Source of the DNA: a virus
Lineage: Duplodnaviria > Heunggongvirae > Uroviricota > Caudoviricetes
DNA length: 6,996 bases
Direction: 5' to 3' (one strand)
Virus record (IMG/VR): IMGVR_UViG_2671180417_000012
Location: 1 to 6,996 of that record
Shown here: piece after piece, positions 1-6,996 of the stretch
Layout of the letters: each line of letters begins with the position of its first letter
How positions within the stretch are numbered: position 1 is the stretch's first letter
Made by a program: the position numbers and the translations under genes
The notes under the pieces: model-generated
The model's input: the letters and a program-made list of their open reading frames with translations, nothing else
The model's database searches: none
What the model was told of the DNA's origin: nothing

Positions 1-66
1 GTAGCGGAGCAGGAAGGACATCTGATGGAAATGGAAGCCACGCAAGCACCTTAAAATCACCATCAT
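1..66 (-). CDS. possible 5' part of a further minus-strand ORF running off the left window edge (partial)
   Basis: ATG at 66-64 lies 3 nt after the stop of the 70..264 ORF and in the same frame; 22 open codons to the window edge. No recognisable SD, and too short to judge. Confidence 0.2.
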   Translation of the reverse strand, partial: MMVILRCLRGFHFHQMSFLLRY

Positions 67-69
67 ACA

Positions 70-264
70 CTAAATCAGTAAGTTGGCAGCATTACCGCCT
101 ACGTCAACCCCTAATGGGTAATGAGCTATAATCTTTGCCACCGGCTCTGCTTCCAGCGATGCCAGCGCAATCCGTGCCAGTTCCATTTGTTCACCACGGG
201 TAAGCCCGTTTTCAAGCGGATTTTTAATGAACAATTCAATACGTTCTTTGGTAATAGTGGTCAT
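70..264 (-). CDS. hypothetical small protein (64 aa)
   Basis: ORF with ATG at 264-262 preceded by AAGGAG (reverse complement of 267-272), though the spacing is very short. Same strand as, and co-linear with, the replication operon. No motif recognised. Confidence 0.5.
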   Translation of the reverse strand: MTTITKERIELFIKNPLENGLTRGEQMELARIALASLEAEPVAKIIAHYPLGVDVGGNAANLLI

Positions 265-333
265 GTGTTACTCCTTAACCCGCAGTGCTTTCAACTGATG
301 AGGGGAACAAAATCTTTTCATCAAACCCTGCAT

Positions 334-537
334 TCATATCATGAACAGCAACACACCAATCCATCGACGAACGATTATCAAGAGCCTCCATGATTTCATC
401 CATGCGGCGTAGGTCATACAGGTAAATGCTTTTATCGCCAATGGTGTAAAAGCCAATTTTTTCGGTGATGGACAGCGATCAAGAACTTCCTGTAATTCGT
501 TCAACCATGCCCGTTCTTTTTTTGTCAAAGTTGCCAT
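334..537 (-). CDS. hypothetical small protein (67 aa)
   Basis: ATG at 537-535, 1 nt after the stop of the upstream 72-aa gene (coupled arrangement). The track ORF 334..627 is longer, but the ATG at 537 avoids overlap with the neighbouring gene. No motif recognised. Confidence 0.45.
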   Translation of the reverse strand: MATLTKKERAWLNELQEVLDRCPSPKKLAFTPLAIKAFTCMTYAAWMKSWRLLIIVRRWIGVLLFMI

Positions 538-538
538 A

Positions 539-757
539 TCAGTTTTCCTTATACGGATTAATTTTATTGTGCAGTGTGTTGAATGACGCCCATACCACGT
601 CGTTATACAATTCAGTAACTGGCTCAATTATTTTCCCGATTGCCCAGACAAAAATTAGAGGGGATATCGGTATCATCAATACGATAAACAGAATGAGAAA
701 CAAAAATTCTGTCGCCCTACTTTTTTGCGGATATTCTTTTCTGAATAATGTAGTCAT
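539..757 (-). CDS. small single-pass membrane protein (72 aa)
   Basis: ATG at 757-755. Charged N-terminus followed by one hydrophobic stretch (FLFLILFIVLMIPISPLIFVWAIG) and a polar C-terminal tail. Confidence 0.55.
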   Translation of the reverse strand: MTTLFRKEYPQKSRATEFLFLILFIVLMIPISPLIFVWAIGKIIEPVTELYNDVVWASFNTLHNKINPYKEN

Positions 758-763
758 TTCTTA

Positions 764-779
764 CCGCCCTTTCGGGCGG
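764..779 (-). other. intercistronic GC hairpin (CCGCCC-TTTC-GGGCGG)
   Basis: Perfect 6-bp GC stem with a 4-nt loop between the stop of the 70-aa gene (790) and the start of the 72-aa gene (757). No U-run follows on the minus strand, so it is more likely an RNA stability or processing element than an intrinsic terminator. Confidence 0.4.
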
Positions 780-789
780 CCTCCCGACA

Positions 790-1002
790 TTAATCGTTGT
801 GGTAACTCATGGCTTCATTTGCAGCATCAACCGGATCAACCTCCCACCAGCAATAATTTGGTGCGTTTCCTTCAGGTGTCCACGGTTCTAATTCATTTTT
901 TGCCACATTCTCGTCGCCAGTAATTTTAAAAATCTGCTCAGAGAATTTTTTCACCCACTCGTTATATTTTTCAGTGTTAATAATTTTCTGTGTATTTGAC
1001 AT
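790..1002 (-). CDS. hypothetical small protein (70 aa)
   Basis: ATG at 1002-1000 preceded by GGAGG with 7-nt spacing (reverse complement of 1003-1020). Acidic, Trp-rich C-terminal half. No motif recognised. Confidence 0.6.
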   Translation of the reverse strand: MSNTQKIINTEKYNEWVKKFSEQIFKITGDENVAKNELEPWTPEGNAPNYCWWEVDPVDAANEAMSYHND

Positions 1003-1107
1003 AGATATACCTCCAGTTAAGGATTAAATTTTATTTACAGTGCTGAACTTAATTATTCAGATTTGGATTATGCTTTCTCTTCACGAAGTTCCGATTGTTA
1101 ATTTGGC

Positions 1108-1530
1108 TCACAACAGCACCTTCTGAAAATTACCCTGATAGAAAGCCAGTACACGCTGCATAGCTTCGCTCTTCCGGCACTCGCTACAGATTATGTTTTG
1201 ACGCCTGTCGTAGCGGCGTATTTCTCCGTCTGGTAATGGCCAGATAAGGTCAGGATCAACCACAGATGGTTTCTTCAGATTTGCCCTTGAGAGTTTTTTG
1301 CGGGCGTTTTGCCAGTCCTTACGCGCCTGTTCAGACGGGAATAACCCGTAACCAGAGTTGTATACATCGCCACTGGCAACCAGCTCTCTGGTGAGAACAC
1401 TCATCAGATATCTTGTCGCACCTGTCTTGGCTTCCAGTTGCCGCAACGTCTCGCGACCGCTCAGACGTACAAGTTCAACAACCTGCCCTTTAATTTTTTC
1501 CCGCTCTTCTTGTGTAAATACTTTTGCCAT
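1108..1530 (-). CDS. hypothetical protein with winged-helix-like N-terminal region (140 aa)
   Basis: ATG at 1530-1528 preceded by GGAGG with 5-nt spacing. The track's longer version begins at a TTG at 1545 that would abut the upstream stop; the ATG with SD is preferred. The segment ETLRQLEAKTGATRYLMSVLTRELVASGDV resembles an HTH/winged-helix motif. Confidence 0.65.
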   Translation of the reverse strand: MAKVFTQEEREKIKGQVVELVRLSGRETLRQLEAKTGATRYLMSVLTRELVASGDVYNSGYGLFPSEQARKDWQNARKKLSRANLKKPSVVDPDLIWPLPDGEIRRYDRRQNIICSECRKSEAMQRVLAFYQGNFQKVLL

Positions 1531-1545
1531 AAGCGCCTCCGGCAA

Positions 1546-2316
1546 TCACTTTTCCGATACAACACGGCGGGAAGAATCAGTAATCTGTCGAACAATATCC
1601 CGGTGCTTGTTCAGCTCCCGCAGCGCGGCGCAGACTCGCTCCCACTTCTGAACATCACTTTTCGCCCTGCGCAGCGCCAGGTTTGCCCTGCGAAGGGACG
1701 GAAAAATCAGCTCATCTGCTTGCGTTTCGGTAAACGATGGCAACGGCTGCACAATGTCCGCCACAGTTTCTGTTTTAATTTCTTCCTGTGTTGCGGCTTC
1801 CCGGACTGGTAACGCAGCACCTGCTGGCTGAGGAAAGGCCTTACCATCACTTTCCGTTACCAGCGCGGCTTTCGGCTCTGCTGGTAAATTATCGCCCGGC
1901 ATGCAGTAACGAAATTTACCGTTCTGATTAACGCGTGCCAGCCGCCCCGTTGCGGTTACCACCGCCAGCGTGGAAGCAACCTTGCGAGTACTGACACCGA
2001 ACTTACCCGCCAGTTCCTCACACGTTTTAGCCCCATCCTGACCGATAAACTCAATCATCATGTCTGCGGTAACTTTTTGTTCGACCTCCCCGGTCAGCAT
2101 ATCCTGTGCTTCAGATTTTACTGGCCGCTCTTCGGTTACCCGGGATTCACCTTCGCCAGCCAGAAACCAGGTGTGACCAGTTTTATCAACGACGCCTTTT
2201 CTTTTGAGTTCCCACAGCTCGTTGACAGCCTCTTCACGACTGATTCCAAGGCGAGCTGCCACCACATGTGAAGAGGCTTTTTTCAGTGCTTTCAGTGCGT
2301 CAGATACGGTTTCCAT
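1546..2316 (-). CDS. phage protein with two winged-helix-like segments (256 aa)
   Basis: ATG at 2316-2314 preceded by GGAGG with 8-nt spacing. Two HTH-like segments (AARLGISREEAVNELWELKRKGVV and CEELAGKFGVSTRKVASTLAVVTATGRLARV). Sits immediately downstream of the helicase-loader gene. Confidence 0.75.
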   Translation of the reverse strand: METVSDALKALKKASSHVVAARLGISREEAVNELWELKRKGVVDKTGHTWFLAGEGESRVTEERPVKSEAQDMLTGEVEQKVTADMMIEFIGQDGAKTCEELAGKFGVSTRKVASTLAVVTATGRLARVNQNGKFRYCMPGDNLPAEPKAALVTESDGKAFPQPAGAALPVREAATQEEIKTETVADIVQPLPSFTETQADELIFPSLRRANLALRRAKSDVQKWERVCAALRELNKHRDIVRQITDSSRRVVSEK

Positions 2317-2337
2317 TAAAATTTCCTCCGGACAAAA

Positions 2338-3084
2338 TTACTTCACAACCCTCATATTGCTGACATTTGGACGCCAGCTATCCCAGTTAAACGTCACCCA
2401 TCGACCACCGTTCATGGTCATGCGGTCCATAATCCTCTCACCAAGAAGCGTACTCATTGCGGCATGATTCAGGTTTGTTAACATCCCGACACTGCACAGT
2501 GATGCTGTCCGGCGATCAATTATCTGGTGCAATACCACCTGCTCGTTTTTCGTCTCCCGCTGAACGCCTATTTCATCCAGGACCAGCAAATCAACCCCGC
2601 AAAGCTCCTGTAAAAATTTTTCCCCGGATTTGCCGTTGTCGTAGCTGTCATGCAACACGCTCATGACGTCAGACACGGTGACGATAATCACGCTGCGCCC
2701 CTTCACCATCAGCCGGTTGCCCATCGCCGCTGCAAGGTGATTTTTCCCGGTGCCGGTTTTACCGCTGAACACAAAATTCGTGCACCCGGTCATCAGTTCG
2801 TCAGCTATGGATTTGGCCTGGCTCAGCGCGTATTTTTGCCCGTCGTTCTGCACCTGATAATTTGCAAACGAGCATTTGCTGTGCAGAGGCTGGATGCCCG
2901 AACGATTCAGGATTTTTTCCACCCGCAACTGGCGATTCTGGCGGTTAATCTCCTCGCTGCGTTTTCGTCCTTCAGCAAGTTGCCATTCCCGCCACTCCTC
3001 CACCGTCCGGTACGGTGGAACCGACCCCTGTGGTGCAAGTCTGCGAATACGTTCAAGAACCCCAACTGCCGCAATGTTTTTCAT
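2338..3084 (-). CDS. DnaC-like replicative helicase loader (AAA+ ATPase; phage P-position gene)
   Basis: Walker A FSGKTGTGKNHLAAA and Walker B DLLVLDEIGVQ, plus GMLTNLN, LLGERIMDRM and WVTFNWDSWR, match the motifs of E. coli DnaC as I remember them. Size and position correspond to ydaV of the K-12 Rac prophage. Confidence 0.92.
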   Translation of the reverse strand: MKNIAAVGVLERIRRLAPQGSVPPYRTVEEWREWQLAEGRKRSEEINRQNRQLRVEKILNRSGIQPLHSKCSFANYQVQNDGQKYALSQAKSIADELMTGCTNFVFSGKTGTGKNHLAAAMGNRLMVKGRSVIIVTVSDVMSVLHDSYDNGKSGEKFLQELCGVDLLVLDEIGVQRETKNEQVVLHQIIDRRTASLCSVGMLTNLNHAAMSTLLGERIMDRMTMNGGRWVTFNWDSWRPNVSNMRVVK

Positions 3085-3090
3085 GACACG

Positions 3091-4032
3091 TCACCCCCTG
3101 AATCCCGGCGGTATTTCAGTGTCCGGTTCAGAAATGTGATTCACGCAACGCTGCGCGGGCGAACGCCCCAGGCGGATAACCAGTTCATCCCATTTTTCCC
3201 GGAGTTTTGCCGGACTCATGATGTTTTTTACCCAGAACGAATCCCGCTGGAGACGCCCAAACATTTCACAAATTTGTCTGTGAGTTCTGCCATCCAGCAT
3301 CCGCATTGTCCGCACGTCATTGGCCCATGCAGTCCAGTTGGGTTCTTTCGGTCTCGTGATCTCGCCATCATCGCTGGCCGCCTGCTCGTAAAGACTCACG
3401 ATTCGTCCCCAGACCCACTGTGCGCACACCAAATCTTCCTGACTTCCCCACTGGCGTTTTTTTGCACTGAACACAACCGCGTCAGGGTGTCGGGTTAAAA
3501 AATTCTGTTCAGCCGTCTGCGGGTCCGGTTGCGAAGCGTCCGGACAAGAAGATCTTTTATCTGACGGATCGGGGTCAATCATCGCCCCCCTAATCGGCAG
3601 TTTGTTATCAACAGTTGATCCATCAAAATTTGACGGGTCAACCGTTGAGGGGGCAATATTTGACGGGTCAACTGTTAACGGGTCATTTTTTGCCGGGCTA
3701 ATTTTTCTTTTCGGTTTATATGACTCACGCGCCGCCGCAGCAGCTGCTTCGAGTTTTTCCACATTAAGCCGATAGATATTGCTTACATTACGCCCACCGA
3801 CCTTACGCTCTTCCTTCGTCAGCCAGCCCTCTTTCGCCAGTTCTGCAATAGCCGATTTCACTGTGGATTCACTTCTTGCACCGATCTGACGCCGGATAGT
3901 TTCAATGGCAGGCCATGACACGCCCTCGTCATTGCTGTAGTCTGCAAGACGGGCCATAACCGCCACCCTGGATAAGATCATGCCGGTGAAGGCGCACCCT
4001 TCCCAGACAAGACCATGAAGCTTGCTGCTCAT
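3091..4032 (-). CDS. replication initiator, lambda-O-like (N-terminal HTH; origin iterons inside the gene)
   Basis: ATG at 4032-4030 after a G-run (an alternative GTG at 4047 gives the track's 318 aa). N-terminal HTH-like segment (SWPAIETIRRQIGARSESTVKSAIAELAKEGWL). An internal peptide repeat (TVDPSNIAPSTVDPSNFDGSTVD) corresponds to DNA iterons. Sits directly upstream of the DnaC-like gene. Confidence 0.85.
   Translation of the reverse strand: MSSKLHGLVWEGCAFTGMILSRVAVMARLADYSNDEGVSWPAIETIRRQIGARSESTVKSAIAELAKEGWLTKEERKVGGRNVSNIYRLNVEKLEAAAAAARESYKPKRKISPAKNDPLTVDPSNIAPSTVDPSNFDGSTVDNKLPIRGAMIDPDPSDKRSSCPDASQPDPQTAEQNFLTRHPDAVVFSAKKRQWGSQEDLVCAQWVWGRIVSLYEQAASDDGEITRPKEPNWTAWANDVRTMRMLDGRTHRQICEMFGRLQRDSFWVKNIMSPAKLREKWDELVIRLGRSPAQRCVNHISEPDTEIPPGFRG
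3606..3725. repeat. putative replication origin: three iterons followed by an AT-rich tract
   Basis: Palindromic cores TCAACaGTTGA (about 3608-3618), TCAACcGTTGA (about 3638-3648) and TCAACtGTTaA (about 3668-3678). The last two sit in a longer repeat, ATTTGACGGGTCAAC. The run ttttttgccgggctaatttttcttttcggtttatat follows at 3686-3725. This is the lambda ori layout inside O. Confidence 0.6.
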
Positions 4033-4054
4033 AAAACCCCCGAACACCGTGCTT

Positions 4055-4480
4055 TTAGTGCATCACCACAGCATTCCCTGCCGGGCCGCCGCGATTCATC
4101 TGGTCATACAAAACAACCGCTGACGCAACAAAATCATCGACATCCTTCACCAGCCGATCCCTCCGTTCGACGATCTCACGGTAATATTCAGAACTGTGGC
4201 TGCGCATACGGGCCACCAGCAAAGGCGGCATCGCCTTTTCGATCGCCGGTAACAGAGCCTGCATTTTTTCAACAGCATCAGGGGTGTCTTTCTCTACCCA
4301 GCGGAAAATTTTCTGGGTATTGCGAGCCAGGGCTTCCGGATGGCTGTCGTCATACAGTTCCGGGAACGTCATTCCCAGCTCGAAATACGCTTTGGTAATT
4401 TTCGCAGCCGGTACTTTTTCGCCGTCCGGATGCGCCCAGACATTCATCGCCATGCGGATGTGTTCATGCTTGATTTTCAT
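4055..4480 (-). CDS. ydaT: YdaT-like protein (Rac-prophage family; CII-position gene)
   Basis: ATG at 4480-4478 overlaps the stop of the upstream Cro-like gene (ATGA overlap), with GGAG 7 nt upstream. The sequence (MKIKHEHIRMAMNVWAHPDGE...) matches my recollection of E. coli Rac YdaT; the 141-aa length fits. Confidence 0.85.
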   Translation of the reverse strand: MKIKHEHIRMAMNVWAHPDGEKVPAAKITKAYFELGMTFPELYDDSHPEALARNTQKIFRWVEKDTPDAVEKMQALLPAIEKAMPPLLVARMRSHSSEYYREIVERRDRLVKDVDDFVASAVVLYDQMNRGGPAGNAVVMH

Positions 4481-4779
4481 GAATCAACTCCATCAGATAA
4501 GCATGCACTACAATCACCTTCAGCATGAACTACATGTGTTTGCCCCAAACGAATGCCGCTCGCATACTCAGGCCAAATAAGCTCCCAATCATGGGGTCGT
4601 AGCTCCGCCCTACTTACTTGGCCTTCCGTCGCAGATTCGATCATAAGGGCGCGGGTTGGAGATATAGCTGTTCGTCCAGACGCCATTTGCGATAAGTAAG
4701 ATGGCGATACACCAAGTCTGGCCGCGAATTTCTTAGCATCACCAACCCTTAATGATTTAATAAACTCTTTTAATGTCAT
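4477..4779 (-). CDS. ydaS: Cro-like HTH protein, YdaS family
   Basis: ATG at 4779-4777 with SD GAGGAAGG (reverse complement of 4782-4789). HTH segment AKKFAARLGVSPSYLSQMASGRTAISP. First gene of the minus operon, divergent from the regulator gene. Confidence 0.85.
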   Translation of the reverse strand: MTLKEFIKSLRVGDAKKFAARLGVSPSYLSQMASGRTAISPTRALMIESATEGQVSRAELRPHDWELIWPEYASGIRLGQTHVVHAEGDCSACLSDGVDS

Positions 4780-4876
4780 ACCTTCCTCGGTTTAGTGTTT
4801 TTTTGCGAGTTTAGTGTTTAATAAACCATTAAGTCAAGTATTTGCTTGTTTAGTGATTACTAAAGATAATTACCAC
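4780..4876. promoter_or_regulatory. divergent promoter/operator region (OR-like)
   Basis: Three direct repeats GTTTAGTG(T/A)TT at 4790-4800, 4809-4819 and 4848-4858. Plus-strand promoter: -35 TTGCTT (4842-4847), 17-nt spacer, -10 GATAAT (4865-4870), placing the start about at the ATG at 4877. Minus-strand promoter: -35 TTGACT (reverse complement of 4832-4837), 18-nt spacer, -10 TAAACT (reverse complement of 4808-4813). Confidence 0.6.
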
Positions 4877-5248
4877 ATGCAAAAAAAAGAAATTCGCCGT
4901 TTACGTCTCAAGGAGTGGTTTAAAGATAAAACTCTGCCACCCAAAGAGAAGAGCTACCTATCTCAACTAATGAGTGGGAGAGCCTCGTTTGGAGAAAAGG
5001 CTGCCAGAAGAATAGAGCAAACATACGGGATGCCGGAAGGGTATCTGGATGCGGAATACGCAGAACAACCGGGGGTTTCTCCACCACATGCAGGGTTAAC
5101 GTCTAATCAACTGGAATTATTGCAGATTTTTTCAGCCTTCCCTGAGGATGAGCAACGCCAGATAATCAGCGAGTTAAAGCAGAAAAAAGAATCAATGGAA
5201 GATCTCATAGCGAGATGGATTGCGGCGCAAAAATGCCGCCGCGCCTGA
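4877..5248 (+). CDS. paaR2: HTH transcriptional regulator (PaaR2-like; occupies the repressor position)
   Basis: ATG at 4877 with no SD, 7 nt after a GATAAT -10 (leaderless, like lambda cI from PRM). HTH segment SYLSQLMSGRASFGEKAARRIEQTYGM. The track's upstream GTG at 4814 would overlap the operators and is not preferred. The name is from memory of the O157:H7 paaR2-paaA2-parE2 locus. Confidence 0.8.
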   Translation: MQKKEIRRLRLKEWFKDKTLPPKEKSYLSQLMSGRASFGEKAARRIEQTYGMPEGYLDAEYAEQPGVSPPHAGLTSNQLELLQIFSAFPEDEQRQIISELKQKKESMEDLIARWIAAQKCRRA

Positions 5249-5268
5249 GTTATAAAACCGGAGGAAAC

Positions 5269-5460
5269 ATGAATAGAGCCCTTTCACCAATGGTTTCTGA
5301 ATTTGAAACCATTGAACAAGAAAACAGTTACAACGAATGGCTGCGTGCGAAAGTAGCAACGAGCCTTGCAGATCCGCGCCCAGCAATTCCCCATGACGAA
5401 GTTGAGCGCAGAATGGCAGAACGCTTTGCTAAGATGCGCAAGGAACGGAGCAAGCAGTAA
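5269..5460 (+). CDS. paaA2: small antitoxin of a ParE-type toxin-antitoxin module (PaaA2-like, 63 aa)
   Basis: ATG at 5269 preceded by GGAGGA (5260-5265). 63-aa charged, helix-prone protein, immediately upstream of the ParE-like gene with a 1-nt gap (TAA 5458-5460, ATG 5462). The track's upstream start at 5215 overlaps the regulator gene and is not preferred. Confidence 0.8.
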   Translation: MNRALSPMVSEFETIEQENSYNEWLRAKVATSLADPRPAIPHDEVERRMAERFAKMRKERSKQ

Positions 5461-5461
5461 A

Positions 5462-5740
5462 ATGTTACCCGTGTTATGGCTTGAAAGCGCAGATACCGAC
5501 CTAGATGATATAACTAGTTATATTGCTCGTTTCGACATAGATGCGGCTGAACGCTTATGGCAGCGATTAAGGGGTTGTGTGCTGCCGTTATCCGAACATC
5601 CGTATTTATACCCACCAAGCGACAGAGTACCTGGCTTGCGTGAGATTGTAGCCCACCCTAACTATATAATTCTATACCGCGTAACAACATCAAGCGTTGA
5701 AGTAGTAAACGTGATCCACGCAAGACGCCAGTTTCCCTAA
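5462..5740 (+). CDS. parE2: ParE/RelE-superfamily toxin (ParE2-like, 92 aa)
   Basis: ATG at 5462 (MLPVLWLESADTD...). Size, composition and conserved C-terminal region (HPNYIILYRV...VEVVNVIHARRQFP) fit the ParE family. Operon partner of the small antitoxin. The track's longer start at 5366 would overlap the antitoxin by 95 nt. Confidence 0.85.
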   Translation: MLPVLWLESADTDLDDITSYIARFDIDAAERLWQRLRGCVLPLSEHPYLYPPSDRVPGLREIVAHPNYIILYRVTTSSVEVVNVIHARRQFP

Positions 5741-5755
5741 CTTTCACTACCAATA

Positions 5756-5808
5756 GAAACATAACAACCGCAACGACTTTATCAAAAGCGTTGTGTTTGT
5801 TATGTTCC
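5756..5808 (+). terminator. long imperfect inverted repeat, possible terminator after the toxin gene
   Basis: About 18 bp pair between 5757-5775 and 5789-5806 (one mismatch, one G-U), with a 13-nt loop. A T-rich segment GGTTTAGTTTTT follows a few nt later. Begins 16 nt after the parE2-like stop. Confidence 0.4.
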
Positions 5809-5855
5809 GCGGTTTAGTTTTTACTTGACTTAAGTTTAATATTCATTAAACCAAA
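5809..5855 (+). promoter_or_regulatory. putative PL-like promoter with operator copy (OL-like)
   Basis: CGGTTTAGT (5810-5818) repeats the operator motif of the 4780-4876 region. TACTTGACTTAA (5822-5833) is identical to the context of the -35 TTGACT of the minus-strand promoter at 4832-4837 and contains the palindrome ACTTAAGT. No confident -10 (best TAAACC at 16-nt spacing). Confidence 0.4.
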
Positions 5856-6170
5856 AATACCAACCCACCCCGCCCCACAGAACGCAGGGAAATACTTCGA
5901 GTTACCCGGCAGTGGTCAGGGGTTAAGTAGCCAGCCCGAGGCGTATGAACATGACGGCAGGGTTCAACTTTAATAACTATGCAGCAGGTTTTTGTTCCGC
6001 TACCCCGGCGTTAAGGGGAAACAGAGGGTTTCTCAGTGGGCGAAGTCAAACATCAGAATGGAAGGCATCCCGGGATCGGCAAAGAAGCAGCAATGGCGCT
6101 TTATATTGACATCAGCGCCATTGCAGGACAGGTAAGAGTTATCAGAGCGGTAACTAAGCGGTATGCGCCT

Positions 6171-6371
6171 TTACTTCAGAAAGTCTCTGGTGAGTGCACC
6201 GAAGATATTGTCAACGATTTCGTCATCGAACTGCGAGGACTCATCTTCAGTTACAAGGTGACCACAATTTTTGCAGATGGCTCCCGCGAAACTGTCAGAG
6301 CCCTGCGGCTTAAAGGATGTGTCAAAGACTTCGCCACCACATTCTGGGCAAGAAAACTTGATTGTATTCAT
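6171..6371 (-). CDS. zinc-ribbon mini-protein (66 aa, CPxCG...CxxCG)
   Basis: ATG at 6371-6369 with SD GAGAGG/GAGGAA 8 nt upstream. Two CxxCG knuckles (CPECGG, CKNCGH) 17 residues apart, and an acidic C-terminal tail. Codon usage looks more E. coli-like than that of the overlapping plus-strand ORF 6036..6392, which uses AGA three times. Confidence 0.6.
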   Translation of the reverse strand: MNTIKFSCPECGGEVFDTSFKPQGSDSFAGAICKNCGHLVTEDESSQFDDEIVDNIFGALTRDFLK

Positions 6372-6463
6372 AACCAATTTCCTCTCGAGTAACAGACCCC
6401 TCAGAGGATACCACCTCGCCTGACGTGGTTAAAAGCAGGCAACGCTAACCACAAGGAGCCGAC

Positions 6464-6682
6464 ATGCAGAAACGAGAACCCGTCATCATCGCGCCAGACT
6501 ATACCGATGATGAACTTTATGAGTGGATGCACCAGAAAATTAATGCAGCGCAGGATCTGAAATGGGCCAATGAAGCCAGGGCTAAGCAGGCTGAAAATCT
6601 GTCCGCTCTGGAGCAGGATATCACCAATCTGGAAAAAGCAGCGGCATTAAGCATTGCCAGAATGATTACATACCCGCGTTAG
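6464..6682 (+). CDS. hypothetical small protein (72 aa)
   Basis: ATG at 6464 preceded by AAGGAG (6453-6458) with 5-nt spacing. Charged, helix-prone sequence. On the same strand as the presumed PL-like transcription. Confidence 0.6.
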   Translation: MQKREPVIIAPDYTDDELYEWMHQKINAAQDLKWANEARAKQAENLSALEQDITNLEKAAALSIARMITYPR

Positions 6683-6699
6683 TAGCTAATCAACAAAGC

Positions 6700-6996
6700 T
6701 AAGGTTAGTAATTAAGGAGTTCTCCACGGGTGAGGTGGAGTGCGTGCGCCGGACACGGGTGAGCATCCGGCACTGACAGTTTACTGAAAGGATATTTCCC
6801 TGAAAAGTCAGACCATAACGCGAAAGCGCACGGCGAGGTAGCTGGTTCATAGATAGCCTGTCGTTAAATTTTCGTCGACCGTGCGCTTCCGGTTGTGGCA
6901 ACCCGCGAAATGGCGCGGCGGTAAGTATGGCGGGGTTATTCCTTCCCCCGTTGAGGACACCGGGTTGTCAGGTTGACCATACGCTTAAGTGACAAC
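6700..6996 (+). other. GC-rich, hairpin-dense non-coding region (candidate structured RNA), continuing past the window end
   Basis: No plausible ORF on either strand. Adjacent hairpins CTCCAC-GGGTGAG-GTGGAG (6722-6740) and GCCGGA-CACGGGTGAGCA-TCCGGC (6748-6771) both display the decamer CACGGGTGAG. Further stems: GCGCACGG (6826-6833) with CCGTGCGC (6880-6887), CCGCG-AAATGG-CGCGG (6903-6918), GTATGG (6925-6930) with CCATAC (6977-6982). Confidence 0.3.

Follow-up and report, generated by a model that had tools for sequence, protein, structure and literature searches.

The replication origins of lambdoid phages are built into the gene of their own initiator, an arrangement that is already known and has textbook status (PMC7466680). 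In phage lambda, and in Stx phages such as 933W with its six iterons, the origin lies between the parts of the gene that encode the DNA-binding and the loader-binding domains. The lambda iterons occupy codons 117-145 of the O gene. They are dyad-symmetric sites of 18-19 bp with a TCCCTC-N6-GAGGGA core, spaced 20-24 bp apart and read in frame as extra linker residues. An A/T-rich region lies on their C-terminal side, transcription from pR crosses the site, and the copy number differs between relatives. Here, a stretch of 6,996 nucleotides from a Caudoviricetes record of IMG/VR was analysed (IMGVR_UViG_2671180417_000012, positions 1 to 6,996; the whole stretch is called the window below). It comes from a lambdoid prophage of the Sp12/CP-933P type, known from E. 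coli O157, and spans its immunity and replication region; the O-like initiator gene there contains an array of short palindromic repeats. On the basis of the comparisons described here, the array is probably the replication origin of this prophage, built into the linker-coding part of the initiator gene as in lambda.

A sequence-only reading of the window had noted three 11-bp iterons of the form TCAACnGTTGA. These sites are present, with an exact spacing of 30 bp: TCAACAGTTGA at 3608-3618, TCAACCGTTGA at 3638-3648 and, with one mismatch, TCAACTGTTAA at 3668-3678. With at most one mismatch allowed, TCAACNGTTGA occurs five times in the window against 0.27 expected, a number reached in 0 of 200 shuffles. 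However, they are not three separate 11-bp elements. The strong sites alternate with weaker palindromes (TCAAAATTTGA at 3623, GCAATATTTGA at 3653 and TCATTTTTTGC at 3683), and Tandem Repeats Finder recovers both a period of 30 (2.3 copies, score 82) and a period of 15 (5.2 copies, score 65) over 3608-3685. The basic repeat unit is 15 bp, not 30. It is present in six contiguous copies (Table 1), or seven if a degenerate copy is counted, which reads GGGGTCAATGGTTGACCCC in related genera.

The gene is on the minus strand, and in this orientation each unit makes five codons, CCG TCA Ann nTT GAC, encoding P-S-x-x-D. The array as a whole is translated as ...AKNDP LTVDP SNIAP STVDP SNFDG STVDN..., which agrees with the earlier statement that in-frame iterons generate a linker repeat TVDPSN...STVDPSN...STVD. 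It covers codons 113-142 of the initiator, wholly inside the linker between a winged-helix domain and a domain related to lambda O, and thus sits at the codons of the lambda iterons. The position profile of the unit is symmetric about position 9, in both of the subfamilies described below. A site bound by a dimer would be expected to have this symmetry, which supports a palindrome centred on the n of TCAACnGTTGA.

Some smaller observations on the repeats may be added. The array as a whole (3610-3676) is an imperfect palindrome with 33-nt arms centred at 3643. The single strand has a folding energy of -17.3 kcal/mol (z = -3.8 relative to shuffled sequences), and a cruciform or hairpin is possible on unwinding. 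This potential is a consequence of the palindromic units and is not counted as independent evidence. Isolated iteron-like sites are found on the plus strand at 5690-5700 (TCAAGCGTTGA, inside the parE2-like gene) and at 291-301 (TCAACTGATGA), and are probably chance matches. An Rfam scan of the whole window gave no RNA family, so that the repeats do not represent any known RNA element, and the window contains no IHF consensus.

The conservation of the array was analysed in 86 loci with the same N-terminal domain, namely that of the window itself, those of two E. coli strains closely related to it, six from phage records (including SfIV, phiP27, LLS, vB_EcoS-733R5 and a Yersinia phage) and 77 of the 80 genome loci that were retrieved at one per species across Enterobacterales. 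The genera covered include Escherichia, Klebsiella, Erwinia, Edwardsiella, Morganella, Providencia and Yersinia. A periodic array with a 15-bp (five-residue) repeat is found just past the winged-helix domain in all 86. Repeats out of position in homologues had been named beforehand as the outcome that would speak against an origin; this was looked for and not found in any homologue examined. Isolated phages with the same module are SfII, SfIV, phiP27, LLS and vB_EcoS-733R5. The length of the linker varies among homologues, and close relatives differ by whole 15-bp units, much as lambda and the Stx phages differ in iteron number.

The arrays fall into two subfamilies. In the window-like one (window, Erwinia, Mixta, Edwardsiella, Morganella) the unit is SSS-yCAA-NNN-TTGA-c, while in the larger, SfIV-like one it is nCn-TCA-r-AATC-TGA-c, equivalent to TCAGA-n-TCTGA, with sites such as TCAGAATCTGA. 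The two cores are matched by two types of DNA-binding domain: GA(K/R)SxxTV(K/S) helices and RK(V/S)GGRN wings pair with yCAAnnnTTGA, and GAG-xSTVRT helices and RRxGNRNASN wings pair with TCArAATCTGA. The iteron core therefore co-varies with the subtype of recognition helix and wing, as would be expected if the iteron sequence sets replicon specificity, and the link to specificity made in the sequence-only reading gains by this. The 'incompatibility type' that the reading assigned to the prophage is itself an inference. The 'primosomal protein' of SfII, SfIV and SfV-type phages, L17 of phiP27 and the homologues in Klebsiella, Yersinia and E. coli phages (all phrog_391) share the N-terminal domain of the window initiator (45-57% identity over residues 1-160), the position of the 15-bp array and a GATCCGTCAG...GATCCATCAG element beside it, and in phiP27, too, the neighbour of the initiator is a DnaC-like gene. 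In contrast, these homologues have the core TCA(A/G)AATCTGA, matching their different helix and wing subtype, and many have another C-terminal domain and an adenine methylase gene in place of the loader.

The repeats are conserved as DNA. Among the positions of the unit that are most strongly conserved in the window-like subfamily are two at the third place of a codon, 6 (1.61 bits) and 12 (1.83 bits); in the N-terminal domain such places have a mean of 0.60 bits, and only 6% of them reach 1.5. The peptides are much more variable. A set of 73 units encodes 41 different ones (PPTVE, GLTVD, PSNID and others) with CAA-N3-TTG kept throughout; for example, CCCCCAACGGTTGAGGGG encodes PPTVEG and CCCTCAACGGTTGACCCG encodes PSTVDP. 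Codon choice is likewise unusual. In SfIV-like arrays 97% of lysines are AAA, compared with 62% elsewhere in the gene, and 82% of serines are TCA or TCT, compared with 27% elsewhere. Before proline, the array uses GAC for aspartate in 130 of 130 cases and a neighbouring GATC element uses GAT in 167 of 168, with mixed usage elsewhere. In the latter element the choice of GAT creates GATC sites for Dam. These patterns of selection point to a constraint acting on DNA, not on the peptide.

The GATC element, which the sequence-only reading had not mentioned, lies on the lambda-like, C-terminal flank of the array. Every homologue carries GATCCGTCAGTAAAnnCAAnnnnGATCCaTCAGATAAAAAA here, conserved in 84 unique loci. 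It contains two GATCCrTCAG repeats, usually 24 bp apart and 21 bp apart in the close E. coli relatives. Most family loci have two or three GATC sites in the element and seven have a single one. Across the family this is the A+T peak of the gene (0.61-0.68), on the side where lambda has its A/T-rich region. Whereas the iterons differ between the subfamilies, the element stays the same, which suggests a partner that is constant. It is a candidate for an unwinding or a methylation-control element. At least 25 of 75 genome loci have an adenine methyltransferase gene directly 3' of the initiator (20 PF05869 'Dam' and 5 MT-A70), and two phage records have a D12-class methyltransferase in this position, where the window has its DnaC-like loader. 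These are three unrelated families of adenine methyltransferase, and their presence fits the invariant GATC pair of the proposed origin.

The sequence-only reading had instead taken an A/T-rich stretch at the other end of the array as the equivalent of the lambda element. The stretch exists (60-63% A+T in 30-nt windows), but as the gene runs from right to left it precedes the array, on the N-terminal side, which is the opposite of lambda. Nor is it conserved, the family mean at this position being 0.49, and its duplex stability over 40 bp places it only within the least stable 9-14% of the window. It is therefore unlikely to be the lambda-type element, and the conserved A/T-rich GATC pair is on the other flank.

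The N-terminal domain, the iterons and the GATC element move together as one unit. Where the window initiator is compared with initiators that have other N-terminal domains, homology sets in at about 3558, immediately beyond the proposed origin elements, showing that the domain travels with its sites. The C-terminal domain is common to initiators bearing other N-terminal domains. Thus the initiators of E. coli AMA1167 and EC_J_9 have a window-type C-terminal domain, an N-terminal domain that is unrelated and repeats of their own in the linker, TCCATyGGTTyAAAA (SIGSK-type peptides), and on sequence comparison this appears to be a clear mosaic swap of a domain-plus-origin module. Three distant homologues (about 40% identity: phi24B 'O', ZF40 gp14 and Salmonella S135) have unrelated repeats with a 21-bp period at the same position in the linker, and by eye these are dyad-symmetric. 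Examples are GGGGCAGGAGCTGCCC, encoding GGAGAA, and CCTGTGCCGCCAAAAAGCACA, encoding PVPPKST. Origin-encoded peptide repeats may thus be general in this winged-helix superfamily.

The initiator itself probably starts at the ATG at 4032, which is preceded by GGAGGA, although the open reading frame as listed runs on to a GTG at 4047. It belongs to phrog_391, 'replication initiation O-like' (E 3e-113). A Pfam scan identified HTH_36 (E 2e-6) and a weak match to DnaD_N, and did not find the Phage_rep_O domain that marks the N-terminus of the lambda O family. In agreement with this, BLASTP against lambda O aligned residues 175-293 to residues 171-277 of O (38% identity, E 3e-25) and detected no similarity in the N-terminal half. 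The AlphaFold2 model, built with an alignment of 33 sequences, has helices and a β-hairpin wing in residues 1-104, with a predicted local distance difference test score (pLDDT) of 71-89. Residues 110-176 have a pLDDT below 50 and no secondary structure, and are followed by a helical C-terminal domain. The array is therefore in a linker that is predicted to be disordered. A fold search with the N-terminal domain gave dimeric winged-helix regulators of the MarR, PadR and ArsR types as best matches, all of them weak (E >= 8e-3); this supports assignment of the predicted model to the winged-helix class and names no specific relative.

Taken together, the comparative evidence supports well the core of the earlier reading, an origin in the initiator gene whose iterons also encode peptide, and we propose a mechanism in which binding, unwinding and loader recruitment, like any firing of this particular copy, are what we infer. 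Dimers of the N-terminal winged-helix domain would bind the TCAA-N3-TTGA palindromes head to tail every 15 bp, with the strong sites 30 bp apart. The resulting nucleoprotein complex would destabilise an adjacent, easily melted segment, which to judge by family conservation is most likely the GATC-containing A/T-rich repeats on the C-terminal side of the array. The C-terminal domain, resembling that of lambda O, would then recruit host DnaB through the adjacent DnaC-like loader, and transcription from a pR-like promoter would cross the origin. The candidate promoter, a match to consensus, would drive ydaS-ydaT-O-dnaC across the origin, as pR does in lambda.

Several points weigh against this proposal. 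The binding register is ambiguous, since TTGAC-CC-GTCAA is also palindromic and the centre of the site could be at either of two positions. A pitch of 15 bp sets adjacent sites on nearly opposite faces of the helix, unlike the 20-24 bp spacing of lambda, so that the complex need not resemble the lambda O-some. A limited literature search returned nothing that describes or tests an origin of this initiator family, only work on lambda and on Stx phages with lambda-type O, and the genome papers of SfII/SfIV/SfV-type phages, phiP27 and related phages do not describe the origin. In the window itself, 21 bp have been deleted in frame between two direct GATCCGTCAG repeats, which changes DPDPSVLKPDPSDKR to DPDPSDKR and leaves the window with one of the two; both are kept in 80 of 80 close IMG/VR relatives and in loci L001-L003. 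The flank on the GATC side is here not easily melted, having an average or above-average duplex stability. Finally, neither excision nor circularisation nor replication was seen for Sp12, the closest named prophage (PMC2669165), a failure for which its disrupted integrase could by itself account.

It is possible, if on the whole unlikely, that the architecture of the origin is as proposed and that this copy is dead, the deletion having removed one GATCCGTCAG repeat and half of the conserved A/T-rich segment. The deletion junction has no match in IMG/VR, the 21 extra bases are present in all of the best 40 matches when 5,426 complete E. coli genomes are searched, and E. coli NCTC9112 is the one other carrier found. 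Prophages of the Sp12/CP-933P type are cryptic (PMC2669165, PMC8630535), and as this nearest named relative neither excises nor replicates, the present copy may be inactive. There is also a precedent in lambda, where according to a passage in PMC6022878 ori-minus mutations include in-frame deletions that leave the O protein active in trans; by analogy the window copy may be defective in its origin. On the other side, two GATC sites, the array and the reading frames of initiator and loader are all intact in the window, and in seven family loci, whether functional or not, the element has just one GATC. A deletion between direct repeats may moreover be neutral slippage, and the role of the GATC element is itself conjectural.

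The remaining alternatives place the function elsewhere or deny it. Unwinding could occur at the A/T-rich stretch at 3697-3724, served by the DnaA box at 3755-3763 in a plasmid-like layout, with the GATC element in another role. Within the window this stretch is richer in A/T than the GATC flank, its A-rich coding strand AAAAGAAAAATTAG resembles the A/T-rich tract of lambda (AAAAGAAAAAAGAAAAG), and the DnaA box close to it is the only perfect one in 7 kb. We nevertheless think this unlikely, because neither feature is conserved beyond the E. coli clade. The window and two close relatives have the box, the other 83 loci lack it at this position, and it is possibly fortuitous; DnaA-box-like matches in the window are not enriched, with 18 found and 15 expected. 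The stretch is only modestly unstable, as noted, and encodes a basic peptide, KPKRK, that could be selected as protein. As a further alternative, initiator binding to the array could serve chiefly in autoregulation, in copy control or in the exclusion of related phages, with initiation elsewhere in the prophage. Initiators can be titrated by iteron arrays; according to a passage in PMC3349717, lambda-type phages are inhibited when a plasmid carries a lambda replication region; and no initiation mapping for this family was found in the literature. This is nonetheless improbable given that the array is at the codons of the lambda iterons, beside the A/T peak of the family, and travels with the DNA-binding domain as one module; a second array of TCAACnGTTGA sites is not present in the window, where the other matches are the two single sites at 291 and 5690. 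The least credible explanation, and one that we strongly disfavour, is that the repeats are a low-complexity (P-S-x-x-D)n linker produced by slippage, the palindromes being a by-product with no function in DNA. The region is certainly a variable-length linker, predicted to be disordered and rich in Pro, Ser and Asp, and such linkers often are products of slippage. It would then be difficult to understand why third codon positions are the most conserved of the unit, why the palindrome core persists where peptides differ, why the codon before proline is GAC throughout the array and GAT in the next element, why the profile is dyad-symmetric and why the core co-varies with the DNA-binding helix and wing.

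We return to the proposed origin within the initiator gene to compare it with described systems. It departs from lambda in several respects: the N-terminal domain is HTH_36 and not Phage_rep_O, the units are contiguous, the core is TCAA-N3-TTGA, the partner is DnaC-like rather than lambda P, the flanking element of the family bears paired GATC sites, and the more obvious A/T-rich tract of the window is on the opposite side of the array. In iteron plasmids (Rep of pSC101, F, P1 and R6K) a winged-helix initiator binds tandem iterons beside an A/T-rich region, and P1 oriR and oriC have GATC-containing repeats in their unwinding region. However, plasmids have directly repeated iterons of about 17-22 bp at a phasing of about 22 bp, placed outside the rep coding sequence, and DnaA boxes are regular there, while the window has one clade-specific box. 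An origin of the iteron-plasmid type was rejected on these grounds, the window units being contiguous 15-bp palindromes inside coding sequence and DnaA-box-like matches not being enriched.

Only two features might surprise a specialist, the pairing of the Dam sites and the packing of the units at 15 bp. We suggest tentatively, and with more doubt than belief, that the O-like initiators with HTH_36 use an origin design that has not been described, combining palindromes packed at 15 bp, an invariant GATCCGTCAG Dam pair and a fit with methylase genes. If this were so, bound dimers would alternate round the helix as a continuous filament and not form a wrapped O-some; the Dam pair would be read by a constant factor (Dam, SeqA or the helicase machinery) and initiation would depend on methylation; and the window, with its 21-bp deletion, would represent an ori-minus allele that arose naturally in a domesticated prophage.

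Once the origin and the determinant of its specificity are located, it would become possible to predict which co-resident prophages compete for initiators or share them, which is relevant to E. coli O157 as a carrier of many lambdoid prophages. It also defines a small fragment for testing autonomous replication. The signature of the family, a 15-bp array followed by paired GATC sites and readable from codon usage, could serve for the automatic annotation of origins, and from the paired Dam sites a connection between prophage replication and methylation by host or phage may be suspected.

Table 1. Features of the window and their coordinates
Feature	Position	Strand	Basis or remark
DnaC-like helicase loader gene	2338-3084	-	Directly downstream of initiator; IstB_IS21 E 7e-19; PRK12377 506 bits; DnaC 299 bits; phrog_50
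O-like replication initiator gene, 313 residues	3091-4032	-	Open reading frame; phrog_391; Pfam HTH_36
C-terminal domain homologous to that of lambda O, presumed loader-interaction module	3154-3510	-	BLASTP
Linker predicted to be disordered, residues 110-176, holding all proposed origin elements	3505-3705	-	AlphaFold2; length varies among homologues
Truncated GATC/AT-rich element; plus strand AGATCTTTTATCTGACGGATC, gene orientation GATCCGTCAGATAAAAGATCT	3550-3570		GATC at 3551 and 3567
Seventh, degenerate unit, GTCAATCATCGCCCC on plus strand	3574-3588		Profile score 12.2 bits; abuts GATC element
Iteron array, six contiguous 15-bp units, each a TCAA-N3-TTGA palindrome	3607-3696		Profile from relatives, repeat finders
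Individual units of the array	3682-3696 (weak), 3667-3681, 3652-3666, 3637-3651, 3622-3636, 3607-3621		
A/T-rich stretch, encodes ...SYKPKRKIS	~3697-3724		Upstream of array in gene orientation
N-terminal winged-helix DNA-binding domain, residues 1-104, presumed iteron reader	3721-4032	-	AlphaFold2
Perfect DnaA-box consensus, TTTTCCACA	3755-3763	+	30 bp beyond A/T-rich stretch
ydaT/cII-like gene	4055-4480	-	
ydaS/cro-like gene	4477-4779	-	
pR-like promoter, TTGACT-18-TAAACT	4808-4837	-	Consensus match only
paaR2-like repressor	4814-5248	+	
paaA2 open reading frame, first of two-gene toxin-antitoxin pair	5215-5460	+	
parE2 open reading frame, second of toxin-antitoxin pair	5366-5740	+	

The surrounding genes are listed in Table 1. 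The position of cI is filled by a three-gene toxin-antitoxin/repressor locus resembling paaR2-paaA2-parE2 (4814-5740, plus strand), as described for CP-933P, and the layout of this type of immunity region has been reported (PMC8630535). DNA matches to the initiator gene occur in 2,232 of the 5,426 E. coli genomes and are nearly full-length in 1,514; in strain Sakai the match falls inside prophage Sp12.

The Rac prophage of K-12 (oriJ, ydaU-ydaV) has the same gene order of repressor, ydaS, ydaT, initiator and DnaC-like loader. However, YdaU is a DUF1376 protein and has no TCAACnGTTGA array, and identity with the Rac replicon was rejected, as the window initiator aligns to YdaU over its last 19 residues only. 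These residues (3094-3150, minus strand), ending in PDTEIPPGFRG, are 68% identical to the tail of YdaU, with ...IPPGFRG itself identical, and a similar sequence is found at the C-terminus of host DnaT. In a sequence search of the PDB the tail was likewise the only part of the initiator to find a match, which was to DnaT. The gene with this tail lies just upstream of a gene of the DnaC type in all three cases (window, Rac and host), which suggests that the tail may be a short motif that recruits the loader or the helicase.

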